Positions 4,021 to 59,794 of a stretch of DNA of 64,000 bases are shown piece after piece (the stretch's first letter is position 1; each line of letters starts with the position of its first letter). A program made the translations under genes and the position numbers. Below the pieces are notes generated by a model. The model searched no databases. It worked only from the letters and a program-made list of their open reading frames with translations, and had not been told where the DNA came from. Location: contig JBHGNT010000090.1 of the NCBI GenBank assembly GCA_043228905.1, forward strand, positions 29,965 to 93,964, in the 5' to 3' direction. Origin of the DNA: Azolla caroliniana (taxonomy: Eukaryota > Plantae > Polypodiophyta).

Positions 4021-4457
4021 GAAAGGTTTAAAAATAAAAATAGAAAACAAAGAAGTAGGAAGAGAGGGAAGAAGCCAAAGAAGAAAAGAGAAGGCAAGAA
4101 AGTAGGAGGCAAAAAAGAAAAGGCAAGAAAAATAAAGGAAGGAATAAATAACTAAATAATTAATAATTAATAATAATAAAGGGACTCTCTTCCTTAGGGC
4201 TAAAACCTAACTATCGTCAGAGAAGGGAAGCCAAGCAGAAACACAAACAGAGAGAGAGAGAGAGAAAAGAGAGAGAAGACAGAGTCACAGTCACAGACAG
4301 ACACACAGAGAGAAAGAGAGAGAGAGAGACAGAGCTTAATCATCATCACACAGAGAGAGGAAAGAAACAACTGCAAGCAGCAGCGGAAGAAGAAGAAGAA
4401 GAAAGCAACACACACTTAGAATTGCTTCTTTCTTCTTCTTCTCCTAGACAGACAGCG

Positions 4458-7400: not shown

Positions 7401-7833
7401 AGAAGATGGGCCTTATGGGATTGTTCACCCGAGGGCTGCCTCTTCGAATTGTCATGATTGGTACTTTGACTGGTGCACAATGGGGAATTTACGATGCCTT
7501 CAAAGTGTTTGTGGGATTGTAAGTGTTTCTTACGTTGTTTCCAATTTCTTTTGATGCTGCTCTATGCATGGCTGTTTGTCCAGATTGCATATTCTTTTTT
7601 AAGTATTTCAGAGTCTCAGGTAAAGGCAAATGGCTCTCTAGAGCACATCTAATTCATTTATAGGCATTCTGAATAGATAAATATGTGCTCTAGACAGACG
7701 AAGTTGTTATTGTCTCTGACTTAACACAAAATGGAAGAATTATCTAGTGTTCTTTTGCAAGGAACTTTTGGCCTCATCTAAGCTGCCTTCTCTGAATTTC
7801 AGGCCAACTACTGGAGGTGTTGCGAAGAAATAA
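4458..7833 (+). CDS. PHT3: Mitochondrial phosphate carrier (SLC25 family, PHT3/MPT-type), 6 coding exons, 377 aa
   Basis: Exons 4458-4814, 5850-6211, 6848-6891, 7059-7273, 7394-7518 and 7803-7833, all with GT-AG introns and compatible phases (1134 nt including TAA). Carrier motifs [20 protein letters not shown] and HPADNLVS; also [30 protein letters not shown] and [17 protein letters not shown]. Confidence 0.96.
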
Positions 7834-14340: not shown

Positions 14341-14540
14341 CTATATATTACATCTGTATCCCTCCTTCGCTCTCTCATACATATTATCAAATTCCTCATC
14401 TTCTACGCCATTCCCTTTTCTATAACCCATACACTCCATCATTACTCTCTCATACATTCACAGATATACTCACATCCTATAATCTCAATAATACAATCCT
14501 ACTTCCGCTGATCCCTATTTCAGTCTACAGATCCAGTGCA

Positions 14541-16329
14541 ATGGACTTCGATCTCCTCCTCTACTGCGAAGAGCTACTCATTAACGAGGATGATTATATT
14601 GGTGGCGGACTTGATGATGATCTGGCTGTAATCGATGAATATAATCCGATGCATGCTCATGATAACAATGTGTCATTAATTAGCTGCATTTCTCATAACA
14701 GCTCGCAGCTAATTAACGATCACATTGATGTCGATGAGGACGACCTGATTACCTTCGGGATCCTTCTTGAAAAGGAATGTGAATTCCATCCTGGGGTTAA
14801 TTCCTATCTTCCTAAATTGCGAGCCAATGATGAAATAATCAACCAGATGTCTGCCCAATTGCGTTGCAGATCAGTCCACTGGCTCCTCAAGGTACATTAC
14901 TGTTTACCACTGCTCTTGAGTATCTGTCCACACTCATCACCTCCGTAGTTTCATCGTTAAATCTCGTTTAATCTCTGTAATAACGTGTCAGGCATGCAAG
15001 ACATTCGGCTTCTGTCCGCTCACAGCTGCCCTGTCTGTTAATTACCTCGACCGCTATCTGGCCCAGAATCTCTACTCTGCAGATGTAAGTAAGCATGGCA
15101 ACTGACCCCAAGATTGTGATCGCGAATGCTGTTAGTGCTTGTGTAATGCCATGTGGCTTGATATGTGATTACTGACCTAATGGTTGTCTCTACCTGGTTA
15201 TTTACTATCTATATGACAGTCATGGAAGCCCTGGATGTTCGAGCTGCTCTCTGTGGCTTGTCTGTCCATAGCTGCGAAGATGGAAGAAGTAGATGTGCCT
15301 TTACTACGAGATCTACAGGTAACCTATTAACATTTGAGTCATCCCGAAGTTAAGAAATATGATTAGAAAGGTTTCTAGTGCGGCACGGCCATCACCTAAC
15401 TACTCATACATTTTATCTTATTTTTGGACAGGTGGATGGATTGGAACACTATTTCCACGATAATACGGTTCAAAGGATGGAATTAGCAGTCATGAATAGC
15501 TTAGGTTGGAAGCTTCGATCCATCACTCCCATCGCATTCGCAGAGAAAGCTATTAATGGCCTTAATTACCTCAGTAATCAGGCAAAGGGCATGCTGTTAG
15601 AGCGCGTCTCGGAGCTGATTCTGGGAACCTTGCCTGGTAAATAATTCTATCTCAATCACCTACCTCTCTCTCTCTCTCTCTCCACAGATAAGATTAATGA
15701 ATCTCGCTTAACGATGGAGAATGAATGTGTTGCAGGATTAGAGTTCCTAGAGTTTCGAGCTTCAGTGATTGCTCTGACGTCTATCCAATGTGCGCTGGAC
15801 GAGAGCTTCCCAATCCAAGCCACATCTCACGGCCGAAGAGAAGCCTTGCTAAAATGCATCCCTGCTGATCAGGTGCAAAAAAGAAGATGGGGAGCATTTA
15901 AAATGATGTCCCTACTTATTACAATTAAAATTCTGTCTGAGTCGCGGTCTGAATAAAAGAATTCCCCTTTGTTTGTGTTTGCGTACGCAGAGTGAGGTGG
16001 TCCACTGTGCTGGACTTCTGGACGAGCTCGTCGTGGACCCCATGACATCACCTTGCGCGATGCTGACGTCGTCCCACGACTTCGACGGCGCTAAGTCGCC
16101 GCCGAGCCCGACCGGCGTTATCCAGCAGCCGCCGCTTGTCTCCGGCCCACGCTGCCGGACAACTGAATTTGAAGTCAACGAACTCGGGATGGACGCCACG
16201 TGGCCCGGCGCCGGGGACGGCTGGGCAATGCCACTGCTGAAGGAGGAGGAGGAGGAGGAGGAGGAGCACCACCACCATCACCATCACCACCACTTACGGA
16301 TGCCCAAACGGCAGCGGAGGGAGGAATAA
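14541..16329 (+). CDS. CYCD: D-type cyclin, 6 coding exons, 407 aa
   Basis: Exons 14541-14891, 14992-15084, 15220-15318, 15432-15636, 15736-15872 and 15991-16329 (GT-AG, in phase, 1224 nt). N-terminal LxCxE (LYCEE); cyclin box with WLLK, TAALSVNYLDRYL, LLSVACLSIAAKMEE and QRMELAVMNSLGWKLRSITP; FLEFRASVIA. Confidence 0.95.
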
Positions 16330-16716
16330 CAACAACAAAAGAAATAGAAGAATAAAAAGGCTGTTTACGTTCGGCTGGTATGGAATGATCGGCGGCGGGA
16401 TGAAATGTGGTGTTAAGCTACCAGCCAGCCGTTTCTGATCCATTCATTGCCCGGGAATCTGGAGCGGCATTATTCATAAATGTGGTGCTCGAATTCCATC
16501 ATACCCCCCCACACACAGAAAAACCACCCACTCACACAGACATGTACATGTCCCTCTCTCTCTCTCTCTCTTTCTCCCCCTATCTTTAATCTAATCCTCT
16601 CTTTCTATCTCTCTCTCTCTCTAGGTTTAGCAGCTACATAATAATAATACATATATATTAGAGGCAATGGATGCCTAGTTGCCTGTCCCCCGTGATCTTG
16701 CTTGCACACTTCTGTC

Positions 16717-24684: not shown

Positions 24685-26601
24685 TCGAAACCAACGACAC
24701 AATACAATAAAAAGGAAATATCAACATTATTTTTTGTAGTAAGAGTATGTTGCCTTTATCCCTTGTTTTACCAATAATATTGATTTGTATGTAACAATCG
24801 GCAACGGTTTGGTTAAAAACACAATATTAAGGGGATTCAATATCAACGGAGAAAATATAAATAATTAATATGAAGGGAATATTAAGGGAAATAATGCCAT
24901 GATATTTGGTTTTAACAACTTTATGAGGCTTAATATCTCTAATCTAGAATATTACTCATCAAGAAACATGGCCATGTTATAATGTGTGGGGAAATATCCT
25001 TTATTAAATTATAATGGCTAATGTCTAGCGGGGTTGTAATATGAAAGGGACTTTGGAGAGTTTTAAACATATAAAAGGACAACAACTCTCATGTAAGGGG
25101 GGCTTTAGGTTACTGAACTATTGACTATCATTTGGTCTTGATTCTCTTCCTTTTAAATCCATTAAGAGCCACTCTCCTCCATGCAGCTTTCACATGCTAA
25201 CAACTAATTTAGACATAAATGTTTTTTTACCTCACAACTATTGATTTAATTTAGACAATTCACATGTCTATTATCTAGTAATTATCTATTTAGTTAAGAC
25301 AAACATATTTCTTGATTAGTGTAAAGATTAGGTGTGTATTAATGCTAAATTAACAATCCAAAACTCGAAGTTCCCGTTGGAAAAACTAGGTGTTGGGAAT
25401 ATGTCCCTCCAATGGGAGGAGCTGACTATTTGGGCCAAGAAGTGCCGATAGTCGAAGAATATGAGGAGCCAACTATTTAGGCCGAGTGCCGATGGTTGAA
25501 GAGTCGACTGCGAGAAAGTCGATTGTGAGAGTCAATTGGGCGAGTCGACAGAAAGGATATCCAAGTCGTAGACACGACCGACTAGTCGGACCAATTGGAC
25601 AGTCGACACTAGAGTCGGCTGATGGCTACTTATTATTATAGATAATAATAGTAGTGATGTGTAGTAGGGGCTACATTTGTAAATAGCCCATGTGATGTAT
25701 GAGTATAAATGCATCTAGGGAAAACGAAGAATATGAGAAAAAAAACTGTGTGTGCTGAGAAGTGTGTGTAGGTAGAACAAAAGAGTAAGAAAGGAGAGAG
25801 CGGCACCATAACTAAGTGAGCTTGGATGTCAAGAGCCATGTGCGGCTTTTACACTCGGTTTTAGAGTGTTGTAATGTGTGATATCACCTTGTATTTCTCT
25901 CTGTATAGTGGAATCTTTGTTCCCGTGGTTTCCCCCTATTTAGGGTTTCCACGTAAATCACAATGTAATGTGCATTTGTTGTTTCCACGTGTTGTTGTGT
26001 ATTTTCAGAGTTAATCTTTCTCACAGATTTGAGATTCGACTCTCAACAAACTTGTATTAGAGCTTGAGGTGCAAGTATGGAAGGAGCTGTGAGTGGCTTC
26101 CAAGGCATGATAGTTATAAACTCTCAGAACTATGCAGACTGGAAGATAAAGATGGAGGACCTTCTCATAGTCAAAGACCTGTACGAGCCGATTGACAAAG
26201 CAGAAATACCCACGGGGGGTATTAGAGTTGGAATGGAAACTTCTTAATAGAAAGGTGGTGGCTACCCTCCGATAGTGCGTCGATGTAAGTGTCCTTCAAC
26301 ATGTGGCGAACAACACAAATGCCAACGAGATGTGGCAGAAGCTGTCAGGCTTATATGAGATGAAGAACACCCTCAACAAAACATCCTTGATGAGAAAGAT
26401 CGTGAGATTAAAATACAGGGACTGGGAAAGCATAGTCGAGCACGTCAACACATTCATGGGGTATGTCACATTCTAGACTCGAACCTCTAACTTTTAACAC
26501 ACATAGTACATTGTGTTGTGTTAACCATATGAAAACTCTTGTGAACTATCCACATTTGATTGTAAACTTCTATATATTGTAGAGTCTAGTGTATCTAGTA
26601 C

Positions 26602-26616
26602 ATTCGAGAATATTCT
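26602..26616. promoter_or_regulatory. Heat-shock element (3 units) in the LTR of element B
   Basis: aTTCgaGAAtaTTCt, followed by further TTCtaGAA-type half-sites before TATAAAT at 26720-26726. Confidence 0.62.
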
Positions 26617-27279
26617 AGTCGTTAGTATATTCTAGAATTTTTCTATGGTATATTGTAAATGGGTATATTCTCGAGATGTTTCTTGAGTATATTCTAGAGA
26701 TATTCAATGTTGGAAATTGTATAAATACTTGTAACATCCTTGGTCCCTTTCAAGGGATTCAACACCAGTCATTGACACATCCATCTAGTATTCTCTTTTC
26801 GCCTCATCTTTGTCTCCTTGATCTTTATTTTTGTCTTCATGCCCTCATGTCTCTCACAACACCTAGAGTTCCTAGCCTCGTCACATCTAGCTTCAAGTTC
26901 ATCCGTCGCTTGTAGCCCCATCATCTGTGCTCTGTCCTAGTCTGCGCTTGGTGTGTACGTGGCAGTTTGAATCCCTTCCAACTGGGAGCACCACCCGTCT
27001 TCGTCATCGCCTTTGCTTCTAGAGTTACCATCATCACTGTCCTTGCTTCTGGAGTTACCGTCATCAACATCCTTGTCTTCGACGTCATCACTTTCAACAC
27101 CTCTTCGCCCAACCATCGTCGTCATCAACACTACTTGTGATCATTTTTAGGTATCATTTTGCATCAAGGTTTTGGTGAGGAGTGCTTTCAATCGCTTTCC
27201 TTACCTATTTCGGTGGGGGTCACAACCACTCACTTTCCTGGTGGGGATCGGATCATTGCTCGCTTGCACTGCATTTTCT

Positions 27280-27815
27280 GGTCGCTCACATCCGTTCCTG
27301 TTCTAGTTCTCAGTGAGGGCCGCATGGTCGCTCACGCCCGTTGGTGTTCATGTTCCAACTCTCGGCGAGGACCGACATGGTTTTTGATGCCCGTTGGTGT
27401 TCTTGTTCCCTGTGAGGACCGCACGTGGTCTCTCACGCTTGCTGGTATTCGTGGTCCAGTCTTCAGTGAGGACCGCATATGGTCGCTCACTCCAGCTATT
27501 GTTCATGTTCTAGATCTCGGCATGGACCGACATGGTCACTCATGCCTGCTATTGTTCATCTTCCAGTTCCCGGTAAGGACCACACATGGTCACTCACGCC
27601 TGTTGGTGGTCGTGTTCCAACTCTCAACGAGGAACAACATGGTCTCTCATGCCTATAAGTGTTCGTGTTCCCCGTGAGGACCACACATGGTCACTTACGC
27701 CTGTTGGTATTTGTGTTCTAGTTCCCGACGAGGACCGCACATGGTTGCTCATGCCCATTGGTGTTTGTGCTCCCCGTGAGGACCGCACATGGTCGCTCAT
27801 GTCTGTTGGTGTTCA
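27280..27815 (+). repeat. Degenerate tandem array, about 10 units of 47-54 bp, inside element B
   Basis: Core GAGGACCGCACATGGTCGCTCAYGCCYGTTGGTGTTC recurs at about 27315, 27367, 27414, 27468, 27523, 27575, 27629, 27676, 27730 and 27778. Confidence 0.85.
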
Positions 27816-28491
27816 ATACCTCGTCTCCTGGAAGGGTTACTCCTTGTCTAGGATTTACAAAATACTTTGGGGGTGATCTAAGATTTTCATCAACAGTATC
27901 CCCTTAAGCCAAGGACTGGTTTGGGAAGGCGGCGTAAGAGGGGGGATAATGTCACATTCTAGACTTGAACCTCTCACTTTTAACACACACAGTACATTGT
28001 GTTGTGTTAACCATATGGAAACTCTTGTGAACTGTCCACATTCGATTGTGAACTTCTATATATTGTAGAGTCTAGTGTATCTAGTACATTTGAGAATATT
28101 CTCATCATTAGTATATTCTAGAATTATTCTATGGTATATTCTAAACGGGTATATTCTCGAGATATTTCTCGAGTATATTCTAGAGATATTCAATCTCGGA
28201 AATTGTATAATGTAATATCCGTGGTTCCTTTCAAGGGATTCAACACTAGTCATTGACAAATCAATCTAGTATTCTCATTTCACCTCATCTTTGTCTCCTT
28301 GATCTTTATTTCTGTCTTCATGCCCTCATGTCTCTCACAACACCCAGAGTTCCTAGCCTCGTCACATCTAGCTCCAAGTTCATCCGTTGATTGTAGCCCC
28401 ATCATTGTCAGGAATAATACTAAAACAGAGAGAGAATTAGTACTAGAGAAGGGAAGTACTATTAGTACTAAGAGGACGAACTGCGTAAGAC

Positions 28492-28552
<61 letters not shown>

Positions 28553-28814
28553 ATGATAACAGATGATATATTATGTGAAGAGTAAGTACAAAATAACTAT
28601 GAGGCTTAAGACTGGCGTTGAACCAATTTGGTTTGAAATAATGCCTTGTGCCTCTTTTATAGTGTCCTCAGGAGTAGTCTTGAAGCTTCTAAAATGTTCT
28701 TGAGAAATCTGGAATATACAATAATTTTCTATAGTAAAACTTAAATGAAAATAATATTTTACGTATTACAATAGATAATGTAATGGTCAAGAGCTTGACC
28801 CATATAACATAAGG

Positions 28815-31800
28815 TTATGGGTTCGAGTCTTGCCATATCATGACACTATCCCCCCCCTTAAGACGATGAGTGTCATGAGTCGGCGTTGATTGTGGATCGG
28901 GTTTGTCCTGATACTTTTGCTGGAAATCAGCAAGAAGATCCTGAGCATTGGCAACAAACTCGGCGGGTTGCCAAGTACGTTCGCTCGGACTATAGCCGAG
29001 CCAATCGACCAAATAATAAAGTTTGTTACGAACAAACTTGGAGTCGAGGACGACAACAACTTCATACTCCAGGCCGGTGTCCAACTCAAGCGGGGGCGAC
29101 GGTGGTGTAACATGATCGGGAATAATGTTGGCCTAATAAGGTTCGAGAAGAGAACTATGGAAGACCGGATGTATCTGAAGGTGCGGAGGAAGATCAAGGC
29201 GGAACGTGACATCATTAATTTTGCTGGTAATACAGAAAGGACCGAGTTGTCGATAATCCAATTTGTCGCACGGTCTAGTTGTCTTGATGTGACGACGTAA
29301 GAGCTATACTCGATCTCCGATGGCCTCTCTAGATGACCCTCAACACGAGGATTGGTAGGTAGCTCCGGAGTGTCGATCACAGACCAGTGAGGATGAGAAC
29401 CGGTATAAGCGTAAATGGTGAGACTCAAGTCGAGGAGTGAATAGCGTTGTTATACGCAAACTCTGCAAAGTGGAGAATATCAGCCCAATCATCCGGTTGA
29501 TAACTCAAAAAATACCAAAGATATTAATCCAACGTTTGATTCGTTCGTTCCGCTTGCCCATCGGTTTGGGGATGGTAGCTGGAGGAGAGGTTGCAAGAGA
29601 CCTTGAGCATCTTGAAGAGATGCTTCCAAAATTTGGAGACGAATTGAGGTCCTCGGTCACTGATGATACTATCTGGGAGGCCATGATGTCGAAATACCTC
29701 ACGCATGACCAGGGTTGCGGTTTCCTCACTAGTGATGGCCTTAGTACAAGGCACAGAATGTGCCATCTTAGTATATCGATCGACGATGGTTAAGATAGCA
29801 TCGAAACCTTTTGAGACTGGAAGCTCTATGATAAAATCAAGACAAATGGACTGCCACGGCTTATTTGGAATTGGTAAGGATTCCAACAAGCCATATGGAT
29901 GATGTCGCGGCATTTTTGCTCGGCAACAAGCATCAAAGGTTCGAACATAGTCGTCACAAAACGTCGCATATGGGGCCACCAAAAGGATCGTTGAATGAGA
30001 TCCGACGTCTTAGTACTACCGAAATGTCCAGTTGTATGGGTGTCGTGACAACTTTGGACGATTTGAAGGTGACAGGAGCAATCAGGAACATACACGAGCT
30101 TTTTAAAGAATAATAAACCATCATGATATTTGAATTGTCGGTAGTCCATACTTGGTTGTTGAGACTGGGAATAGGATGCCCTAGAGGCATCAATTTGCTC
30201 TAGAATGGCTTAATCAAAACTATCTATCTTCAAGTTGGCACATATGGCATCGATAATCCGGGAATCCAGTGAAGTGTGAAAACTCTGCGTTGTGTGCAAA
30301 CGTGTTGGTCCCAAGATTACCTGCTTTGATTATCAAATGTTGGATCACCCGGACGAGGTGCAAGATATGAATGTCGCGATAGTGCATCTGCTTTTCCTCG
30401 CCCGAAATGTGATTTTGAAGTCAAAACGCGTGAGGAATTGGGCCCACCGAGCTTGCCGTCGATTTAGTACACGAGCGTTCTGGAAGTAAGCAAGATTTTT
30501 GTGATCACTGAAGACAATGACCTGATGAGGAAAGCCCTCTAAGAAGTGCCGCCATTGCACAAACGAATCCACGATGGCTAATAACTCCTTGTCATGTATC
30601 TCGTAGTTAATTTCCGCGGCATCAAATTTGCATGAGTGGAAAGCCACATGATGTAACTTTGCTTTATCTCCTTGTTGTGAAAGGATGCTACCGAGGGCGA
30701 AATCCGATGCATCGGCCTCCATGATGAATGGTTTGTTTGTATCCACATGAGCTAGAATAAGAGCTGATGTAAAGGCTTTCTTAAGATGCATAAAAGCCAT
30801 GTCCGCTTCATTGGACCAAAGAAATGATTGTCCCTTCTTGGTAAGATGTGTGAGAGGTAAAATAATCTTTGAGTAATCTTGTATAAACTTGCGGTAGAAG
30901 TTAGCAAATCCTAGGGAACATTGCACATCTCGTAACGAACGTGGAGTTTGCCACTCTAGCACAGTTTGGACTTTAGCTGGATCTATGGAGATGCCTTTTG
31001 AGAAGATGACGTAGGCTAGAAATTCCACTTGCTTGTAGTCAAAGCTACATTTTTCTAGTTTGGCATAAAGACCATGCTCTCATAGTTGTTTTAGTACTAA
31101 TAGTACATGAGAATCATGCTCTTCCTGGGCCTTCAAATAAATCAATAGATCATCCAGGTAGATGATCAAACAGATATCCAAGAGATGTCTGAATATATCA
31201 TTTGCCATGTGTTGGAAGACTCGAAGTACCCATATCGGGTGCGAAAAGCGGTCTTCCATTCGTCTCCTAGTAGGATCCGCACGAGGTTATATGCTCCTCG
31301 TAAGTCGATTTTTGTAAAAAACTTGGCACCATTTACACGTTCTAATAGAGTTGATATAAGGGGAAGAAGTGCATACCTATTCTGAATGGTGACCTTATTC
31401 AAGCTGCGGTAATCAACGACGTGACGAAGGGATCCATCTTTCTTTTTGACAAAGGAAATGGGTGCACCGGCCGGAGATTTCGAATGAAGAATAAACCCAC
31501 TTGCCAAATTCTCTTCTATGTAGGCTCGAAGGACTTCCAACTCGGCTGGTGACAAGTTGTAAATCGGTCCCCATGATGGTTTTGTTCCTGGTTGTAAATC
31601 GATGGGACAATCATAGGGACGACGATGAGGAAGAGTACCAACTCTGACCTTGTCAAATACATCAGCATAAGGATGATATTTCGCAGGAAGTTGAACTAAG
31701 GATTCCTTTTTAATATGTTGGAAGGATGTACTGATATTACAAATAGAAACCTTGACTCCTTCAAACCAAGGTAAATTTATGGAGCGAAATGGTCGAAACT

Positions 31801-32243
31801 CGATGAATAGATTCTCGAGGTTGTCGATACTGGACTTCTCTTGTTCTCTAATCTATGTCTGGATTATGTACTTCAAACCAAGGTAATCCCAAGACAATGG
31901 GATGCTCTGGACTACTAATTATATTAAATGATACCACACAGACAAAGCTATCTAGGACAACCTGAATGGGTTCTAACTCTTCTACGATATTCCCAGAAGC
32001 AATGGGACGACCATCAATGACTACTACAGATGTGGGGCAAGGAAGTTTTCTTAAGGATATCTGAGAAGCTTGGGCAAAATTGCGATCCATGAAACAGGAA
32101 TTGGCTCCGGAATCTAAAAGTGCTAAGACATGTATTGGAGGGGTACTTTTAGTACTAATAATGACTTGGGCTAAGAACACATTGCTAACTTGCTTAGAGG
32201 GAATGGAACCACTAATGGGCTGCACAGATCTAGGGTTGTCCAA
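28815..32243 (-). pseudogene. Chromovirus C pol: protease, RT, RNase H, integrase, chromodomain
   Basis: ALLDSGA; KIDLRGAYNL and IIYLDDLLI; EADASDFALG and YEIHDKELLA; HDTHTTGH, DFI, SDRGPQF and HPQTDGQAER; chromodomain EYEVVVVLD...YYLVDWLGYSPSERTWQP (29084-28815). Frameshifted. Confidence 0.93.
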
Positions 32244-32361
32244 CCAAATGACTCCTATTTTGGTTGAACTTAGTGTTTAACTCTTCCTCTAATTGACTAA
32301 GGATTTCAAATTTGTTTGAGATACTTGGGCTATCAATATTATTAATACTATTAGACACTCC

Positions 32362-32954
32362 TGTTGGGAAACAAGTCCCTCCGGATGGGAAGGGAGAAGC
32401 ACAGTGCCTCGGCCGAAACCGGATGAGTAGCACCCAGCTACGGAGAGTCGGATGGTGCAGGCCCGGTATGAACCGGATGAGGAGTACCCGGCTACGGAGA
32501 GCCGGATGGTGCAGGCCCGGTATGAACCGGATGAGGAGCACCCGGCTTCGGAGAGCCGGATGGTGCAGGCCCGGTATGAACCGGATGAGGAGCACCCGAC
32601 TATGGAGAGCCGGATGGTGCAGGCCCGGTATGAACCGGATGAGGAGCACCTGGCTTCGGAGAGCCGGATGGTGCAGGCCCGGTATGAACCGGATGAGGAG
32701 TACCTGGCTACGGAGAGCCGGATGGTGCAGGCCCGGTGTGAACCGGATGAGGAGTACCCGGCTACGGAGAGCCGGATGGTGCAGAACCAGTGAGAACCGG
32801 AGGAAGAGACATATTCGTAAATATGTTTCTGAGAGCCCATCGAGGCTATATTTGTAAATAGCCGAAAAGTCATATTAGTATAAATATGACTTAGGGTAAA
32901 CTTTTAGTTGTTGTTGTCATTTTCTGTTTTGCACGAGATTAGTGTGCGTAACTG

Positions 32955-33003
<49 letters not shown>

Positions 33004-33273
33004 GTTGTTGCCTCTGTTGTAACCGCCGCCTGTGGCGAAGATTTGTGAGCACGAGGTCGGTGCCTCAGTGAACTCACTGTTGTATATTCCTACATAGTGA
33101 CAGTTTGTAGCCTGTGGGCTGCCGTGGTTTTTCCCCTAGTTTGGGGTTTTCCACGTAAACCTCCTGTGTATTCTCTCCTTCTTTGTGTCGCGTTTTATTT
33201 CCCGTTTTCTGTGTATCATTCTAAGCTCGGTTGTGGCCGAGCGTTGCGCATAAGGAACGTTGGGTTCCCGTCA
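32362..33273 (+). mobile_element. Copia solo LTR (family of element F) inserted between gag and protease of C
   Basis: TGTTGGGA...CCCGTCA, homologous to 50577-51303; TSD ACTCC/ACTGC (1 mismatch). Confidence 0.9.
32415..32790 (+). repeat. 54 bp tandem repeat x7 in U3 of the solo LTR
   Basis: GAACCGGATGAGGAGYACCCGGCTWCGGAGAGCCGGATGGTGCAGGCCCGGTRT at 54 bp spacing. Confidence 0.93.
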
Positions 33274-33329
33274 ACTGCTAGGGGAATTGACTCGGGTTTA
33301 GTATAGGCTACGATTTGATTTACCTATCT

Positions 33330-34244
33330 TCTTGGCCTATGGGGACAGTTGATGGTGATATGCCCTGGTCCACCGCAATAAAGACATAATCGATTTGCAT
33401 GTCGTCTTTGCTTTTCTTCTTCCGATAACGGGCCACGTCGACGCATGGTGTCAATCTCCATCGGTGTCGGAGTATTTGCCTGAGATACATCTCATGCAAC
33501 CGGTTTAGCTGCGATTGAGGCATAGGTGGGCTCTGGCCTAGTCCGTGGCATTTGAAATTGACGTTCTGAACGTCATTCGAAAAGGCGGTTGTCGCATTGG
33601 ACCTCTCAACTTATTGCCTTTGTAAGAGATTTTGGTTCTTCGAGAAAGGTTAAAAGTAAATCTTTGACGTCGTTTTGCAGGTCGTAGTGGAACTACTCCA
33701 TTAGTGCTTGATCATCCTAGGGGATATCTGAGGTGAGTAGACAGAAATCCGTCGCGTAGGCAGAGGCTAGACGATCGCCTTGACGCAATCGTCAGATTTT
33801 GTTGATCGTCGTCCTGATGTTGTCGGTATCTCCAAAGCAGGCTTTAAACTCGCTAATAAAGTCTTCAAAGTTATTAAGCAAGGGAGATTGTTTTTCCAAA
33901 AGCGGAGTGAACCATGTCAAGGCTAAGCCGCTGAGCAACGTGCCTATTAGGCCTACTCGGGATGCATTAGTGGGGTATCGGGAAGGATGCATTTGCATGA
34001 CTAAGCGTACCTGATTAAGGAATCCTCTGAATTGTGAGCGTGTTCCATCAAATTTCACAGGAAGACCAATCTTGGGCTCTTTATGAAGTTCTTGGGGACT
34101 TGATCCTTGTTGTTGTAACGCTACGATGGTTGCTTCGAGTTGTTGTACGCGTAACGCTAACTCCCCATGTTGTTGTTGTGTTTGTTGTTTTTCTAAAGCA
34201 ATTTGTTGAAGATCCCCTAACAATCGTTGGTTTTCTTGTTCCAA
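33330..34244 (-). pseudogene. Chromovirus C gag (retrotransposon gag domain plus CCHC knuckle)
   Basis: EPKIGLPVKFDGTRSQFRGFLNQV...LLSGLALTWF; RLCLYCGGPGHITINCP at about 33340-33392; internal stops and frameshifts. Confidence 0.88.
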
Positions 34245-34475
34245 TGCAACGAATTTTTCTTTTAGACAATGTAGCTTGGAAAAAACGGATTGATATTTCT
34301 AGGTGCTAACAGTAGCCATAGTATTGAAAAAAGGGGTAAGAGGATGAGGGAAACCGAAAAGAAAACCAGAGGGAAATTTTGGTTCAAACTTTCAGGAATA
34401 GTACTAAAATAGAGAGAGAATTAATACTAGAGAAGGGAAGTACTATTAGTACTAAGAGGACGGACTGCGTAAGAC

Positions 34476-34530
<55 letters not shown>

Positions 34531-34658
34531 GTGATAATAGATGATATATTATGTGAAGAGTACGTACAAAATAGCTATGAGGCTTAAGACTGGCGTTGAA
34601 CCAATTTGGTTCGAAATAATGCCATATGCCTCTTATATAGTGTCCTCAGTAATAGTCT

Positions 34659-34678
34659 TGAAGCTTCTAGAATGTTCC
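34659..34678. promoter_or_regulatory. Heat-shock element (4 alternating nGAAn units) in the 5' LTR of chromovirus C
   Basis: tGAAgcTTCtaGAAtgTTCc, about 20 bp upstream of the minus-strand TATATAA (34633-34639). Confidence 0.7.
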
Positions 34679-35453
34679 AGAGAAATCTGGAATATACAAT
34701 AATTTTCTATAGTAAAACTTAAATGAAAAATAGTAATATTCTACGTATTACAATAGATAATGTAATGGTCAAGAGCTTGACCCATATAACATAAGGTTAT
34801 GGGTTCGAGTCTTGCCATATCATGACAATCATCTGTGCTCCATCCTAGTCCGCCCTTGGTGTGTCCGTGATAGGTACTTTCCGCAACCAAGTTTCCCCTT
34901 GAAGATGCAATGCAGGCCATCTTGCTGTTGTGTACCCTACTGGACAACTGGGAGAATCTAGTGGTGACTCTTAGCACCTCGTGTCAAGAAGAAAACTTGT
35001 CTCTACAAGCCGTAAAGACAAGCACCTTGAACGAGGAGACCAAAAGGAAGGACAAGGGTGTCCTAGTCCAGTCGGAGACAAATTTGACTCAACACACCGA
35101 CAGAGGAAGAAATCGGCAAAGGAGCCCACAAAGAAGGGAGAAGTACCAAGTCCGGAGGCAAGCTAACATGTTTTTATTGTGGAAAACCTGAATACTTCCA
35201 AAAGGATTGCCGACACATGATAAAGGATAAAGGTGTCGGTAATGGCGTCGAACCCAAGAAGATTCCAGAAGAAAAGGGCACTTCGGCCATTGCTACGAGC
35301 AATGAAGAACTCTTGTTCATTTGTGAACAAGCAAGACTTGCAAACCTTGCAAGCAAAGAATGCACTTGGGTGATCGACTCTGGTGCATCTTTCCATATAA
35401 CTCCGTCGAGAGAGTACTTCTCGACTTACATAGTCGGGGATCATGGTTTTGTA

Positions 35454-35875: not shown

Positions 35876-38800
35876 TGTCGAATACATGTGTATAATGGAC
35901 GTATTCACACTATCCCGTTTCGGCCATTTATGTAATTAGCATAAAGGGTAGTTGCCCTAAGTCGGTCACTATATATAGTGACCTTGTAACCTCTTTGTGA
36001 GGTTGGGTGTTGTATTATTTGCTTTATGGAATAAAGAGTCTTTTGTGTCTCTCTCTCTCTCTCACTCTCTCTGTGCAACGACCTACAAACTGTCATACGC
36101 AGGTATACAGAAAACAATCGAATGCTTCTTGATCTTCCGCACAGACGACTTTGTCTCCAACATCTGGTATCAGAGCAGAGGTTCGGCCGTCATCACCGCC
36201 TGCACAGCATTCGGTTCTTCACTTCATCACGGCCTGCACAGTATTCGCGTCATTCGAAGAAAGAGAGAAGAAGAACAAAAACGAGGTTTGCACCTCATCG
36301 CGTTAGATCCTCTTGCTTGGAGTAAGCCATCAGGTTGTACTCTGTTCCTTGTGATCGTAACCACTCGAGGTGAAATCCCCTTGTGCAACATCGACACGAT
36401 CGTGCTCCACTCGGTTAAACGGCATCCGAAGAGGTAATCAAACGCTGCTCGTTGTAACCACTCGGTGCAGATCGGTCTCAAGAAAACAACCCCAATTCGT
36501 GCTTCATCCGGCTGATCGACATTCGAGAGGATCAGTTGGATCTGTCTCTCTCGTCGCTGCAGCCACCCGAAGCAGAATCGGTCCAGATAATCGGTTTCAA
36601 TAATCGGTATTCGGCACATATATCCGAAGCGAACCGGGCTCACTCCGACTCGGCAACATTCGGGAAGACCAGTCGGTTCTGTCCCTCAAGTTACCGGAGT
36701 CAATTCGAGCAAGTTCCGAAGCCGAACCGACTCGGGTTCAAATCCGACTAGAGCGATATCGGGTGAGCCAACCGGCTGCACTCCAACAAGGTTCGTAGTC
36801 AACTCCGAACCGAGCTTCGTCAACCGAAACCGAATTTGATGGCATCAACATCCGGCTCGTCAGAAATGAGTCTACGAAAGTTCGATGGATCGAACTTCAA
36901 CTTCTGGAAGGAGCAAATGCAGGACTATCTCATAGTCAAGGGGCAAATCGATCCCATCGAAAATGAAGAACCTCCAGAAGGATACAAACCAATTGAGTGG
37001 CAGAAGCTGGACAGAATCGTCCGCGCCACGATTCGGATGCACCTATCGGAATCGGTATACTTTACGGTGCAATCGTGTACGACAGCATTCGAACTGTGGA
37101 AAACACTGTCGGACACTTACGAAAAGAAGGTCGCCGCAACAAAGATGTTTCTGATTCGGCGCCTCTACAACTTGCGGATGAAAGAATCCGATTCGGTTCA
37201 AGCACACCTCAATGAGTACGAAAGCATAAGCTCCCAAATCTCGTCACAGGGGACGGCAATCGAGGATGAACTCAGAGCAATGATACTCATGAGCAGCCTT
37301 CCCCCATCATGGGAAACTTTCGTCACAACTGTGTGCAACGCGTCAACCACGGCTGTTAAATACTCCGAAGTCACGAGCGCAATCCTGACCGAAGCAGCTC
37401 GGAGAAAGTCTTTCGCCAAAGACTCAACAGACGACGCTTATGTAGTGCAAGGTTCGACAGACCGATCGAACATACGAGGAAGAGACTCCTCACGGCCGCC
37501 GAACAATCAGCGAAGACGGAGCCAGTCACGGGATAACCGAATCTGCAACTATTGCAAGAAACCCGGACACATCAAAGCCGACTGCCGCGCACTCAAGAAC
37601 AAGAACAACAAGAAGAGTGGCCGGCATGAGGAGATCAATTACGTCAGCTTCTCAGCTGATGTACTACCGGACGACCCGAATATACTATCAATCGAAAATC
37701 CAGTCGGATCAGAAGTTCTGCTCACGACTGAAGAATCGAGCACATGGCTCTTGGATTCGGGCGCGTCATTTCACGTGACTCCTCATCGATCCCAATTTCG
37801 GCAATATACGATCCGTCACTCCGACTCAGTTCGAGTCGGTAACTCGCAACACTGTGACATCATCGGAATCGGCACAGTAGAGCTCAACCTTGCCGGTGGC
37901 TCTACACTTGTACTCCACAATGTCCGACATGTACCCGAGCTCTCAAGGCCATTGATCTCAGTCGGACAACTAGATGAAGACGGCATTCGTGCCGGTTTTT
38001 CTTCGGGAGGGTGGACACTCCACAGGGGGAACCTCCTGCTTGCTAGAGGACCCAAGATACACTCCCTGTATCCGTTACATGTTACGCTCCGAGAGGGTAA
38101 CCTGTTTTTGGTGGACATTCCTGTGTCATCACTATGGCACAGAAGATTAGGACACCTCAGCAAGGCCGGCATCACGCACCTATCTAGAGCCGGATACATC
38201 CCCAAACTCTCCTTCTCCGACCATCAATTCTGCGAGCATTGCCAGTATGGCAAACAAGCAGCCGCATCACACCCGACATCAGCCCCAAGAGAAACGAGAC
38301 CTCTCGATTTGGTCCACTCGGACGTCTGTGGCCCAATGCCGCATCAGTCTCTTGGCGGTGCCTCTTACTTCGTCACTTTTATTGACGATTCGACTCGAAA
38401 GGTGTGGGCGTATCCAATTCGCACGAAAGATCGTGTTTTCTCGATCTTCTCAGATTGGCTCGCTATGGTAGAAAATCAAACCGACCGAAAACTGAAATGC
38501 TTTCGGACAGACAATGGGGGAGAGTTCAAATCCGAAGAATTCGTCAAATTCTGCCGACAACGCGGCATCCGACGTGAATTTACGGCACCACACAGTCCGG
38601 AGCAAAACGGGATTGCCGAACGCATGAATCGGACAATCCAAGAACGGATAGTTTCCATGCTCCAACACTCCGGACTGTCGGATGGCTTCTGGGCAGAGGC
38701 TCTACTCACGGCAGTACACATAATCAATATGTCGCCAAGTAGACCTCTAGGACTTCAAATTCCTCAGGAACTATGGATCGGCAGTAAGCCGAATTACGAC

Positions 38801-41332
38801 AAGCTGAGGATCTTCGGATGCGAGGCGTACGCCCTTATTCCGAAAGATGATCGCCGAAAACTTGCACCTCGGTCCAGGAAATGCATTTTCCTTGGATATG
38901 GATCCGACGGCGAAATGGGATACCGACTCTGGGACCCCGAACGCAGACAAATCGTTCGAAGTTCGGACGTTGTGTTCAACGAGTCGGCTATGAATCCATC
39001 AGTCGAAAAACCGATCAAAGTCCGAAGGGTAACATTTTCCGATGTGCCGACCCTTCAAGAAGGCCCCGCTCTTAACACACGGTCAGCTTCACGGGTAGCT
39101 GAACCTTACACTACCGACTCGGACAACTCTGACTCGGCACAGCCGAATGATTCGCTTTCGGACCATCCGACCTCGATACCCGATGCGACCAGTCCAATCT
39201 TACCTCGACGATCCGAGAGACTGTCGCAACCTCCGGAGAGGTATTCTCCTGGAATTTTCTTCACCGACGCCGGCGAACCGACGTCTTACGAAGAAGCATC
39301 GACATCTGTCGATTCAGCCACCTGGCATCTGGCGATGGAGTCGGAAATGCACTCCATTCGGGCAAACAAGACTTGGGATCTGGTCGAATTACCTAGGAAC
39401 CGACGTGCTCTTCCTTGCAAGTGGGTTTATCGACTAAAAGAGACGTCTGATTCGACCACCCCAAAGTACAAGGCCAGATTAGTTGCGAAGGGCTTCCGAC
39501 AACAATATGGCGTCGACTTCGACGAGATTTTTTCACCAGTGGTGAAAATGACAACCCTTCGTTTTCTACTCGGCGTAGTGGCAGCCGACAACCTCGAGCT
39601 GATTCAGCTAGATGTCAAAACAGCCTTCCTCCATGGTGATCTTGAGGAGGAAATTTATATGGAGCAGCCAAAAGGCTTCGTGGCACCTGGCCAAGAACAT
39701 CTAGTCTGCCGACTCAGGAAGAGTCTATACGGCCTCAAACAGGCACCACGACAATGGTACAAGAAGTTCGACGACTTCATCCAATCGATCGGCTTCTCAA
39801 AAAGCGATGAGGACCATTGTCTCTTCACCAACACAGCTCAAGATGGATCACCCATCTTCCTCATCATTTACGTGGACGACATGCTAATTTCTGGACGCCA
39901 CGCGGGCGAACTTGCCGATCTCGTTCGGCAACTGCGGTTGAAGTTTGCCATGAAGGACCTCGGTCCGGCACGACACATCCTTGGCATGAAGATTAGTCGG
40001 CATCGCGATAAACGACATCTTTTTTTGTCTCAGACCGACTATATCGGACGTGTCTTGGAACGCTTCAACATGCAATCAGCCAAATCTGCTTCAACCCCGC
40101 TCCCCATGAATCTTCGGCTCTCTCAGCGAGACTGCCCGACATCCGGTTCGGAGGGGGAAGATATGAAGTCGGTACCATATGCACCGGCAGTCGGCTCCCT
40201 TATGTACCTGATGGTCGCGACACGGCCTGATATTTCTCACGCCGTAGGAGTCGTTAGCAGATTTATGCACAATCCTGGCCGATCGCATTGGAACGCAGTC
40301 AAGCATGTGTTCAGATATCTGGCTGGCACAAAAGACCACGACATTCTTTTCGGTCCGAACCGAACCTCAGGCGTAGTCGGTTACACCGACTCGGATTTCG
40401 CCGGCTGTATAGACAGTCGAAAATCAACAACCGGATACTGCTTCAAATTCGGCAATGGAGCAATCTCGTGGAAGTCGAAACTTCAGGAGTGCACAGCGAC
40501 CTCAACGACCGAAGCAGAATATGTAGCTGCGTCCGACGCAGCAAAAGAAGCCTTATGGCTTGGTCGGCTGGCGCACACGTTTCGGCAAGTCGACCATGAC
40601 TTGGCCCCAGTTGTCTATAGCGACAGTCAAGGCGTTGTTGCCCTGTCGAAAAATCCGGTTCACCACAACGCCTCCAAGCATATCGACGTTCGATATGACT
40701 TCGTTCGGGACTGCGTCATTTCAGGGAAAATCGGTCTAGAGAAAATATCCACAACCGACAATGTCGCAGATGGAATGACCAAATGTCTTTCGGCAGACCG
40801 CTTTCGGTCTCTTCGGCATCAGATGGGCGTAACGACAAACCAGTCCGGTTAGAGCCGGACACAGAGCAGGATGGTTCCCGACAACCGACATCAGTTCCTT
40901 AATGATCGGCTTCAACTGTTCCGACCCGACCAGTTCGGTCTTCTGCCTTCGGACCCTGCCGACTCGAACAAAGCTGATATGTCCGAGAACCTAAGTCTAT
41001 ACCTGTAATCTTAGATAACCCATGTATACGCCCATTACGGGGGAGTGTCGAATACATGTGTATAATGGACGTATTCACACTATCCCGTTTCGGCCATTTA
41101 TGTAATTAGCATAAAGGGTAGTTGCCCTAAGTCGGTCACTATATATAGTGACCTTGTAACCTCTTTGTGAGGTTGGGTGTTGTATTATTTGCTTTATGGA
41201 ATAAAGAGTCTTTTGTGTCTCTCTCTCTCTCTCACTCTCTCTGTGCAACGACCTACAAACTGTCATACGCAGGTATACAGAAAACAATCGAATGCTTCTT
41301 GATCTTCCGCACAGACGACTTTGTCTCCAACA
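35876..41332 (+). mobile_element. Intact, very young Ty1/Copia element D
   Basis: 287 bp LTRs at 35876-36162 and 41046-41332, identical on base-by-base reading; TSD GAAAC; PBS TGGTATCAGAGC (tRNA-iMet) at 36165-36176; PPT GGGGGAG. Confidence 0.97.
36839..40852 (+). CDS. Copia Gag-Pol polyprotein (1337 aa from the ATG), uninterrupted
   Basis: CNYCKKPGHIKADC knuckle; WLLDSGASFH protease; HRRLGH...CEHC; integrase HSD, RTDNGGEF and NGIAER; RT YGLKQAPR and YVDDML; RNase H YTDSD, TTEAEY and SDSQ. Confidence 0.96.
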   Translation: MASTSGSSEMSLRKFDGSNFNFWKEQMQDYLIVKGQIDPIENEEPPEGYKPIEWQKLDRIVRATIRMHLSESVYFTVQSCTTAFELWKTLSDTYEKKVAATKMFLIRRLYNLRMKESDSVQAHLNEYESISSQISSQGTAIEDELRAMILMSSLPPSWETFVTTVCNASTTAVKYSEVTSAILTEAARRKSFAKDSTDDAYVVQGSTDRSNIRGRDSSRPPNNQRRRSQSRDNRICNYCKKPGHIKADCRALKNKNNKKSGRHEEINYVSFSADVLPDDPNILSIENPVGSEVLLTTEESSTWLLDSGASFHVTPHRSQFRQYTIRHSDSVRVGNSQHCDIIGIGTVELNLAGGSTLVLHNVRHVPELSRPLISVGQLDEDGIRAGFSSGGWTLHRGNLLLARGPKIHSLYPLHVTLREGNLFLVDIPVSSLWHRRLGHLSKAGITHLSRAGYIPKLSFSDHQFCEHCQYGKQAAASHPTSAPRETRPLDLVHSDVCGPMPHQSLGGASYFVTFIDDSTRKVWAYPIRTKDRVFSIFSDWLAMVENQTDRKLKCFRTDNGGEFKSEEFVKFCRQRGIRREFTAPHSPEQNGIAERMNRTIQERIVSMLQHSGLSDGFWAEALLTAVHIINMSPSRPLGLQIPQELWIGSKPNYDKLRIFGCEAYALIPKDDRRKLAPRSRKCIFLGYGSDGEMGYRLWDPERRQIVRSSDVVFNESAMNPSVEKPIKVRRVTFSDVPTLQEGPALNTRSASRVAEPYTTDSDNSDSAQPNDSLSDHPTSIPDATSPILPRRSERLSQPPERYSPGIFFTDAGEPTSYEEASTSVDSATWHLAMESEMHSIRANKTWDLVELPRNRRALPCKWVYRLKETSDSTTPKYKARLVAKGFRQQYGVDFDEIFSPVVKMTTLRFLLGVVAADNLELIQLDVKTAFLHGDLEEEIYMEQPKGFVAPGQEHLVCRLRKSLYGLKQAPRQWYKKFDDFIQSIGFSKSDEDHCLFTNTAQDGSPIFLIIYVDDMLISGRHAGELADLVRQLRLKFAMKDLGPARHILGMKISRHRDKRHLFLSQTDYIGRVLERFNMQSAKSASTPLPMNLRLSQRDCPTSGSEGEDMKSVPYAPAVGSLMYLMVATRPDISHAVGVVSRFMHNPGRSHWNAVKHVFRYLAGTKDHDILFGPNRTSGVVGYTDSDFAGCIDSRKSTTGYCFKFGNGAISWKSKLQECTATSTTEAEYVAASDAAKEALWLGRLAHTFRQVDHDLAPVVYSDSQGVVALSKNPVHHNASKHIDVRYDFVRDCVISGKIGLEKISTTDNVADGMTKCLSADRFRSLRHQMGVTTNQSG

Positions 41333-43085: not shown

Positions 43086-46000
43086 ACGTATAAGCATGTG
43101 GCTTAGGATCAGAGGTCGAAGCTCAACAATATGTCGAAACCATGCATATTCATGGGATACTCGGAGGACGAGTTTGTCTACAGGCTATGGGACTTTGTTG
43201 ATAAGAAGGTGGTAAGGAGTTTGGATGTATTCTTCTTGGAAGACAACAATTGAGGACAAGAAGAAACAGATGTCGGAATCGACTCCCCAATCTCCCTTGA
43301 CTACCACATTAAGGCTAGTTGAACCGACACAATCGGCTAATCAGAGACAACTATATGGAAGAGCTGAATCGGAGTCCGTCGACTTAGAGTAACCGACCTA
43401 TGAGTCAGAGTCGACAAACCTATTGAAGTCGATTGAAGAATACGAATCGGAGTCAGTGGACATCCGACAACCGATCAACATGAATGAACCCAAGTCGAGA
43501 GAAGTGTTGGCAGAGATATCCGAGCAGGAGCCAAGGACGAATGGAAGGAGATATCCTTTCAGAGAGAGAAGAGCACCGACAACATATGCCAGTCAATACA
43601 TCCTCTTGATTGATGAAGGTGAACCAGAATGCTATGAAGAAGCCACAACCGACAAGCATAGTGAGAAGTGGCTAAATGCGATGCAAGAAGAGATGGATTC
43701 CTTGCACGAGAATTATACCTACGACCTAGTAGAGCTGCCGAAGGGTAAGAGAGCACTCAGGAATAAATGAGTCTACAAGGTGAAGACTAGAGAAGTCGAC
43801 AATGCCCCCCCAGGTATAAAGCATGCATTGTGGTGAAGGGTTTCCAACAAAAAAGGGGTGTCGACTTCAACGAAATATTCACGTTTGTCGTGAAGATGAC
43901 ATTCATCTGAACTGTTATGAGCATTGCTGCGAGCATGGATATGGAGATCGAATAGTTCGATGTCAAGACATCATTCTTGCATGGGGAGCTGGATGAAGAG
44001 ATCTACATGTAGTAGCCCGAAGGCTTTGTGGAGAAAGGGAAAGAGAATTTGGTGTGTTGACTGAAGAAAAGTTTGTATGGGTTGAAACAAGCTCCACACC
44101 AATGGTACAAGAAGTTTGAATCCTTCATGATGGAACATCGGTTCCAAAAAACATCGGTTGATCACTATGTGTTCGTCAAAAGGTATGAAGAAGGTGATTT
44201 CTTGATTCTCTTATTATATGTAGATGACATGTTGATAGTCGGTCAAGATACAAGGAAGATTGGAAGCTTGAAGAAAGCTCTAGGAAAATCGTTTGCCATG
44301 AAAGATCTTGGACCGACTAAACAAATCTTAGGGATTCACATAGTTCGGGACAGAACTAAGAAAGTGTTGTTGTTGTCACAAGAGAAATACGTGACGAAGA
44401 TCCTAGAAAGATTCAACATGTCGGAAGCAAAGGTTATCAGCTCTGTGTTATCGACCAACTGCAAGTTGAATGCAAAGCAGTGCCCGAGATGGGAGAAAGA
44501 AAAGGCTGAGATGAGGAAAGTACCATATGCCTCAGTCGTCGACAATTTAATGTACGCTATGGTTTGCACGAGACCAGACATAACATTTGTTGTGGGAACA
44601 TTAAGCCGATATATGAGTAATCCAGGACGAGAACACTGGGCAACAGTGAAATGGTACTCGTGTACTTAAAAGGCACCTCGGGGGTATGCCTAAAGTATGG
44701 TGTCAGATAACCCATGCTCAAAGGGTTTACCGATTCGGACATGTCGAGGGATGGGGACTCGAGCCGATCCACGTTAGGGTACGTGATGACATATGCAGGG
44801 GGAGCAGTGCCATGGCAGTCACGACTGCTGAAGTTTGTGGCCTTGTCGACCATAGAGGCAGAGTATATGGTAGCGGTAGAGGCTGGCAAGGAGCTGATTT
44901 GGATGAAGATTTTCCTCAGTGAACTCGAGATGAAGCAAGAATAATTCTTGCTCCACTATCATAATCAGAGTGCCATACATATTGCAAAGAACGTTGCATA
45001 CCACTCTCGGACAAAGCATATACAAAGGAGGTATCATTGGTTGCGAGAGAAGGTAGACGAAGGAGAGTTTTCCCTCGTGAAAATCCATACCGACGACAAT
45101 GGATCCGACATACTCACGAAGAACCTACCAATGGATAGACTGATAGTCTGTCGACAAAAGACAGGACCAGTCGACTCCCATCCATTGTAGTGAAGGGGGA
45201 GTTTGTTGGGAATATGTCCCTCCAGTGGGAGGAGCCGACTGTTTGGTCCAAGAAGTGTCGATAGTCGAAGACTAGGAGGAGCCAATTGTTCGGGCCGAGT
45301 GTCGATGGTTGAAGAGTCGATTGTGAGAGTCAACTGGGTGAGTTGACAGAAAGGAGATCCAGGTTGAAGACACGACTGACTAGTCGGGCCGATCGGATGG
45401 TCGATGACCAGGCCGACTAGTCGGACCGACTGGACAGTCGACACTAGAGTCGGCTAATGGTGACTTATTGTTATAGATAATAATAGTAGTGATGTATAGA
45501 AGGGGCTACATTTGTAAATAGCCCATTTGATGTATGAGTATAAATACATCTAGGGCAAACGTAGAATATGAGAAAAAAACAATGTGTGCTAAGAAGTGTG
45601 TGTAGGCAGAACAGAAGAGCGAGAAAGGAGAGAGCAGCGCCATAACTAAGTGAGCTTGGATGTCAAGAGCCCTGTGCAAATAATACATTCGGTTTTAGAG
45701 TGTTGTATTGTGTGATATCACCTTGTATTTCTCTCTGTATAGTGGAATCTCTGTTCACGTGGTTTTCCCCCATTTAGGGTTTCCATGTGCATTGTGCATT
45801 TGTTGTTTCAATGTGCTATTGTGTATTTTCCGAGTTAATCTTTCTCACAGTTTTGAGATTCGACTCTCAACACTAGGTTGTGTTGACTCCTTCAAGGAAG
45901 CTCCATTTAGGTGATAAAATGATTATTAGGAGCAGAACTCTATGAATAACAATGAGGGAAGAGACATGTTCTACTCTAATTCTAGGAGATGTGTTATGAG

Positions 46001-47931: not shown

Positions 47932-47980
<49 letters not shown>

Positions 47981-59763: not shown

Positions 59764-59794
<31 letters not shown>

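Follow-up and report, generated by a model that had tools for sequence, protein, structure and literature searches.

In the window, by which we mean the whole 64,000-nucleotide stretch of Azolla caroliniana DNA that was analysed, we found a non-coding LTR element of about 2 kb, here called B, at positions 26464–34872; a second element, A, splits its 3' LTR, and without the nested A, B measures about 1.98 kb. The site of insertion is the gag region of a copia-like element that is older than B (LTR pair 25391–26048 / 45204–45872, with RVT_2 inside). Its parts, all on the forward strand, are arranged in the order LTR, PBS, low-complexity leader of about 300 nt, about 10 tandem repeats, decayed chromodomain end, polypurine tract (PPT) and LTR. 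The left TSD, GGGTA (26459–26463), and the right copy, GGTAC (34873–34877), have GGTA in common, and we infer a 5-bp TSD from which one G has since been lost. The 501-bp 5' LTR (26464–26964) begins with TGTCAC and ends with GTGGCA, in contrast to most copies, in which the terminus is TGACA. It carries a TATA box (TATAAA, 26720–26725), an 11-mer that is a putative self-primer (AAGGGATTCAA, 26752–26762; the predicted first 11 nt of the RNA, with a presumed start at C|A) and an R stretch (26768–26779) that, judging from duplex energy, is predicted to pair with the LTR end as a second duplex resembling a U5-IR. Behind the LTR come a 2-nt spacer, GT (26965–26966), and the PBS (26967–26977).

The internal region of B contains degenerate tandem repeats of 48–54 nt each (27294–27814); one frame of the repeat unit reads GEDRTWSL, which recalls the TWEP motif of chromodomains. 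The repeats are followed by the remnant of a decayed chromointegrase C-terminus, or chromodomain (27811–27911), which was recognised by tblastx and blastn matches to the 3' ends of a coding chromovirus family, G, and which stays below the cut-off against Pfam Chromo (E 0.052). Next come the PPT (27936–27949), of the same type as that of G, the first part of the 3' LTR (27950–28405), which contains a second copy of the 11-mer, and, beyond A, the last 40 bp of that LTR (34833–34872). The two LTRs are 92.3% identical over 496 columns. A 178-aa ORF at 27141–27677 has no Pfam match at E ≤ 10, and the long internal ORFs of B copies (open frames of 140–350 codons) come from the repeats.

Element A (28406–34827, reverse strand) is a decayed 6.4-kb Ty3 chromovirus with gag, PR, RT, RH, IN and chromodomain, the TSD ATCAT and LTRs that are 95.6% identical. 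It has the Ty3 domain order with a group I chromodomain (Chromo E 6.7e-13), in which aromatic Y/W/Y positions are seen by eye; we take these to be the aromatic cage motif. Its layout is the same as that of B, with the pair AAATTGGTTCAA/TTGAACCAATTT: the putative 12-nt self-primer AAATTGGTTCAA (34596–34607, reverse strand) lies 33 nt after the TATA box, and the PBS (34376–34387, reverse strand), which follows a GT spacer, reads TTGAACCAAAAT in the window copy and TTGAACCAATTT in many copies. Among the best 240 hits listed for A and G, most of which are unnamed, the named relatives come from fungi, vertebrates, Closterium and a fern, with no seed plant named; when the 120 best near-length RH hits were considered, a fern, Adiantum, was the source of the one named relative. 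The relatives of A would fit Tf1/sushi-Tcn1, the proposed membership of A and G in Tcn1 resting on features and best hits.

Elsewhere in the window, a copia element (35876–41332) has a 1361-aa open frame (36767–40852) and 287-bp LTRs that are 100% identical, which indicates a very recent insertion. An inverted pair of 550-bp repeats with 94% identity (47148–47686 / 59175–59726; also 47887–48139 / 59719–59953) flanks or abuts a Ty3 element that is not chromovirus-like and whose 3' LTR has no evident PPT. Two host genes, one mitochondrial phosphate-carrier-like (Mito_carr match) and one that reads by eye like a D-type cyclin, lie at 4167–7554 and at about 14500–16330. Elsewhere in the genome there is a plastid-type locus, trnS-psbZ-trnG-trnC, with apparent editing sites.

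Copies of B and the coding family G

B belongs to a family of hundreds of copies. A query with B gave 1660 first-look candidates in the genome, a figure that is not a copy number and from which 40 were scored; the exact motif of LTR end, GT and PBS occurs 142 times (control, 0). We call this subfamily B1. In the first 40 of the 142 B1 loci, gag and pol are absent straight after the PBS in every case, and this, together with the origin of the long ORFs in the repeats, bears out the preliminary description of B as non-coding. Among 14 delimited B copies (two sets), 12 are 2.07–3.3 kb long and two are longer, with LTRs of 420–535 bp. TSDs in 14 copies with both ends located are exact 5-bp duplications in 7, carry one mismatch in 3 and are absent in 4; a 4-bp, Galadriel-like TSD, at which the window copy hinted, was ruled out by the other B copies.

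Of the 30 copies closest to the window B, 28 have an intact PBS and 20 an intact LTR 11-mer; over 330 cells, there are 3 differences in the PBS and 10 in the primer, with a background of about 5%. We drew no conclusion from the apparently stronger conservation of the PBS, since other 11-mers are equally conserved. Five close copies combine a mutated 5' 11-mer with a 3' LTR that is visible, and in each of them the two LTRs disagree, indicating that the primer mutations arose after insertion; inheritance of mutated primers from an untested 3' LTR is unsupported. Because the primer changes postdate insertion, close copies yield no covariation, and we found no compensatory changes among these 30 B1 copies.

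Family G was reached through the 3' end of B, where the last ~150–160 nt show a 68% match (E 4e-9 and 7e-6) to the chromodomain-PPT end of G. In the G LTR, AAGGTGAACAA lies 32 nt after the TATA box, and the G PBS, predicted before the search, was then found 192 times (control, 0). When 30 of these 192 loci were sorted, 15 were of G type, with a start codon close after the PBS and gag detected in 13, 10 belonged to B2, a non-coding sister subfamily of B1, and 5 were chimeric. Of 10 fetched G copies, L299 and L303 have pol flanked by an LTR on either side, and they alone match the 3' end of B in place. Since the match is to pol-bearing G copies, B likely derives from a G-like chromovirus, which lends support to the proposal in the preliminary description that B is a parasite of chromoviruses. 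We ruled out a TAR Ty1/copia origin, as the sole protein remnant of B matches Ty3 chromodomain ends. No coding family with the B1 primer was found in 40 of the 142 B1 loci, and these loci gave no candidate for a B1 helper.

Complementarity, covariation and predicted folding

The PBS TTGAATCCCTT, which starts 2 nt past the 5' LTR, is the exact reverse complement of AAGGGATTCAA, which starts 32 nt downstream of the start of TATAAA at 26720; the sequence thus confirms the pairing on which the preliminary description was built, along with its remark that no TGG-type tRNA PBS follows the 5' LTR of B, where GT leads directly into the 11-mer with no TGG. The chance of an 11-nt inverted match starting 0–5 nt past the LTR end, to anywhere in a 501-nt LTR, is about 7e-4. 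In 25 scorable B1 and B2 copies, the distance from TATA to the 11-mer is 32 nt in 20 and 31 or 33 nt in 3, and no TATA was found in 2. The GT spacer is also present in A, in families C, D and E and in most G copies, and the PBS slot between the spacer and the common downstream sequence is conserved at exactly 11 nt.

B2 shares the R-U5, leader, repeats and chromodomain remnant of B1 and differs from it in U3 and in the primer/PBS pair. The B2 pair, AAGGTGAACAA/TTGTTCACCTT, shows 4 compensatory changes as compared to B1, and both of its members are identical to the primer and PBS of family G; the U3 of B2 is unlike that of G past the first ~80 nt, yet the 11-mer is kept. When the PBS was left unspecified, 206 B-type elements were found, and the first 100 listed comprise 62 of the TTGAATCCCTT type (B1) and 38 of the TTGTTCACCTT type (B2), counted by eye with single-base variants included, with no intermediate class. 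The class of the LTR 11-mer equals the class of the PBS in 25 of 25 scorable copies (18 B1 and 7 B2; Fisher p 2e-6) from a set of 30, the other 5 having an R start that is not alignable. As copies of the same class are related, this concordance represents one historical switch and not 25 events.

Further primer/PBS pairs, beyond those of A and B, came from nested elements. In six copies (A, A', B, C, D and E), 65 of 66 cells pair, and 5 positions are changed on both sides; none of 500 shuffles reach this score, which is inflated by relatedness and in which the last 4 pairs are fixed by the search itself. The family E pair has one A–C mismatch, and several A copies match over 9–10 nt only. Overall, the elements contain at least five distinct PBS sequences, each in step with its own LTR. 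The expected compensatory changes among genomic copies are thus present between B1 and B2 and across families and absent among close B1 copies, and at the level of complementarity and covariation the self-priming put forward in the preliminary description is supported.

In the predicted fold of the putative RNA 5' end, the B primer and PBS pair with a mean probability of 0.91, and the central duplex is predicted with P of 0.91–0.93 in B, A and C. The second duplex, between R and the LTR end, has –16.2 kcal/mol in the window copy (p 0.063) and –21.6 in copy L004 (0 of 1000 shuffles), and it is not significant in the A, C, D and E examples. For the third duplex of a Tf1-like 'pretzel', which is weak, p is 0.037 in the window copy and 0.57 in L004. 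We also found that an arm of U3 complementary to the primer forms a hairpin in B2 (2/2), G (3/3) and A/A' (3/3), as opposed to B1 (0/3) and C/D/E (0/3); the inverted repeat of the primer lies just upstream in U3 (L252, L250 and L053), giving a 9–12-bp hairpin over the predicted start that is weak in B1. Our guess is that this hairpin may mask the primer copy at the RNA 3' end. Copy L248 has the loop of this hairpin in inverted form in its 3' LTR.

Chimeric insertions joined at the primer and PBS

In 5 of the 40 B1 loci, the PBS runs straight into the reverse complement of U3. Matches to this junction pattern number 15 for B1 (5 of them the known loci, and one an apparent assembly duplicate) and 42 for the A PBS; the latter consist of 32 A chimeras, which reach the LTR start by way of the inverted U3 (two of them being duplicates of each other), 6 normal elements with a lengthened PBS and 4 loci of another LTR family. 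The bases added in the lengthened PBSs are those upstream of the primer, five of the 6 matching over 16, 17 or 21 nt, and one B copy (L103) has a lengthened pair of 15 nt. Chimeric loci (L153, L196–L227, L131–L145, L243, L245, L251, L254 and L260) come from families A, B and G and a fourth LTR family. On the element strand, their order is U3, primer, AC and inverted U5/R, followed by a jump into the element.

At the 3' end of the family A primer, 39 of 53 purine-following sites run into AC and an inverted LTR end (3 of the 39 being lengthened-PBS elements and 6 uninspected), as compared to none of 33 at a control site located 11 nt beyond it, where one unrelated junction and one short insertion were seen. 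When 30 A chimeras were traced over 9 kb, a TSD with a U5 end was found in 15 (9 exact and 6 with one mismatch), and 15 are without a matching end. The best reading of these structures is that a plus-strand DNA end carrying a copy of the primer or PBS anneals to its complement during reverse transcription, and the chimeras likely record the primer/PBS pairing in action.

The chimeras could instead have formed after insertion, by template switching of a DNA polymerase or by recombination between the 11–12-bp inverted repeats, and would then be uninformative about reverse transcription. Most A chimeras do have ordinary U3/U5 ends with a TSD, as a rearranged resident element would, and other inversions occur near B LTRs (L091 and L119). 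However, in L153 (G000:C4:19608639-19611661), which consists of LTR, GT, PBS and inverted U3, U3 ends in inverted orientation lie on both sides, right inside one exact TSD, TCTAC, and the U3 copies are 98.1% identical; with U3 on both sides and a perfect TSD, L153 was most likely integrated in that form, which is not easily given by internal rearrangement of a normal insertion. The second jumps also land in distant, sometimes inverted, parts of the element, which speaks against a post-insertion origin. Among the 29 inverted pieces measured from BLAST ends, which are approximate, 25 end in R-U5, at or past the end of the primer; in 8 the distance to the primer end is 25 nt or less, and no piece ends in the primer (3 more are too short for measuring). 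In L212 and L222, the U3 copies are 100% identical over 214 nt, like fresh insertions, so some chimeras are recent. We consider a post-insertion origin of the chimeras unlikely and favour annealing during reverse transcription.

A proposed self-priming route for B and its alternatives

With an 11-mer that stands in place of a tRNA site and changes in step between sister families, B likely self-primes; we assign a probability of roughly 0.87 to the reading that B borrows chromovirus proteins and, like Tf1, uses the first 11 nt of its own RNA as the primer for reverse transcription. The transcript would begin with the A that lies 32 nt beyond the TATA box, and the 5' end of the RNA would fold onto the PBS, aided by the duplex between R and the LTR end; here complementarity and covariation are seen in the copies and the fold is predicted. 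By analogy with Tf1, RNase H of a helper would then cut after nucleotide 11 and yield a 3'-OH. Remaining attached, the primer would be copied into the plus strand and would thereby template the PBS, as is suggested by the lengthened PBSs with bases from upstream of the primer and by the block switch between B1 and B2. The integrase of the helper would insert the cDNA with the 5-bp TSD that is found at the copies. A likely cost is that a DNA end with the primer or the PBS may anneal to the other during reverse transcription, which would account for the observed chimeric structures.

A host tRNA or tRNA fragment might prime B instead, the self-complementarity then serving to hide the PBS in a fold with a role in regulation or packaging. 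In an incomplete set of 39 distinct tRNA genes, which cover 12 anticodon types and are in part plastid, tRNA-Arg(TCT) has an internal 8-nt match to the B1 PBS region, the best for B, and tRNA-Asn has a 9-nt T-loop match to that of A. These matches are internal and shorter than the 11–12-nt self-match. Without a TGG at the PBS, no tRNA CCA end can pair, and the exact 11-nt length of the slot and the way in which the different PBS sequences follow their own LTRs both speak against a tRNA; we regard such priming as extremely improbable. It is also very improbable that B is primed in trans by an 11-nt 5' fragment off a co-packaged helper RNA, its own LTR copy being merely inherited. The primer and PBS of B2 are those of coding family G, as trans-priming would have it, but all 18 scorable copies of B1 carry a concordant pair of their own while the 40 sampled B1 loci contain no coding element with that primer, and B2 retains the 11-mer in a U3 that has otherwise largely diverged from that of G. 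We therefore retain priming of B by its own RNA. Several small contigs of the genome (L061–L069, L078–L080 and L083–L090) also bear tRNA genes in tandem arrays (Lys-TTT, intronless Ile-TAT and Arg-TCT) and a Leu-Gln-His tRNA cluster that is repeated.

To our knowledge, self-priming has been proven only in fission yeast, and in plants it has been predicted from complementarity. In the accessible text of the papers cited here, the Tf1 primer fold is a three-duplex structure, the 'pretzel' (PMC10085805), and about 50% of Tf1 cDNA molecules retain a PBS tail that is single-stranded (PMC11042837). Self-priming is predicted there for 83% of 1500 plant Tcn1 elements, in moss and club-moss, with a criterion of at least 10 nt of complementarity 0–5 nt after the LTR, and for 89% of 203 TAR Ty1/copia elements (Houba, Osr-1) (PMC6317226); TRIMs are described as shorter than 1000 bp, with 100–250-bp repeats and a tRNA PBS (PMC6934838). 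Like Tf1/Tf2 of Schizosaccharomyces pombe and Tf1/sushi (PMC10085805, PMC5341516, PMC11042837), B has, just after the 5' LTR, a PBS to which an 11-nt R stretch is complementary, lacks a tRNA site, is predicted to form a duplex with the LTR end beside that of the primer and belongs to a chromodomain-bearing lineage; unlike Tf1 as described there, B, which is known from sequence alone, encodes no protein and has a 2-nt spacer, a weak third duplex and two primer classes in one lineage. As in plant Tcn1 (PMC6317226), A, B and G have at least 10 nt of complementarity within 0–5 nt of the LTR, with a 5-bp TSD and, in A and G, a group I chromodomain. B resembles TAR in that self-priming is predicted in plants for both, and differs in that its remnant is a Ty3 chromodomain and not copia (PMC6317226). 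With TRIMs (PMC6934838), B has in common that it is non-autonomous and has the order LTR-PBS-PPT-LTR; however, we ruled out that B is a TRIM, given its ~2–3 kb, its LTRs of 420–535 bp (about 500 bp in the window) and the lack of a tRNA-complementary PBS. In integrase-independent Tf1 insertion (PMC11042837), a retained PBS copy at the cDNA 3' end likewise anneals to its complement and gives rearranged or tandem elements; in contrast to the tandem direct structures at resident PBSs described for that route, the present chimeras join the primer of the element itself in inverted orientation, many of them with a TSD.

Since self-priming was already predicted for plant Tcn1 and TAR (PMC6317226), the mechanism itself is known, and the novelty for plants implied by the preliminary description, which had set B against tRNA-primed TRIMs, is reduced accordingly. 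In the accessible text of the literature searched (including PMC2864245, PMC3350952, PMC6088434 and PMC11899658, with subscription journals, Repbase entries and some supplements, e.g. Additional files 1 and 3 of PMC6317226, outside its coverage), we found no non-autonomous self-priming plant element, no primer switch and no inverted primer/PBS chimeras. We consider B real: a mechanism already known in plants by prediction is present here in a non-autonomous variant, for which the comparative support is unusually good and whose by-product is undescribed.

A wider joint reading is tentative, and we give it somewhat less than an even chance. In this reading, the self-primer would be a rewritable key, as the plus strand copies the primer, and a non-coding parasite could swap its promoter-plus-primer cassette and overwrite the PBS in one cycle (B1 versus B2, with four bases changed at once and no intermediates). 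The same duplex would misfire in roughly a tenth of 5'-LTR/PBS junctions, giving a regular class of integrase-inserted, 5'-inverted chimeras, and the U3 'anti-primer' hairpin in G, B2 and A would mask the primer copy at the RNA 3' end. If this is true, the genome would preserve a fossil record from which the primer end and the cleavage site can be mapped without bench work.

Taken together, these data give comparative support for self-priming in a plant genome, through a block switch in one lineage, a PBS predicted in advance and then found, and dozens of dated duplex-joined insertions. They suggest LTR end, spacer, PBS and inverted U3 as a genomic signature of self-priming in any assembly, and annotation tools that demand a tRNA PBS will miss such families. 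A non-coding element, it appears, can take the self-priming route with borrowed proteins.
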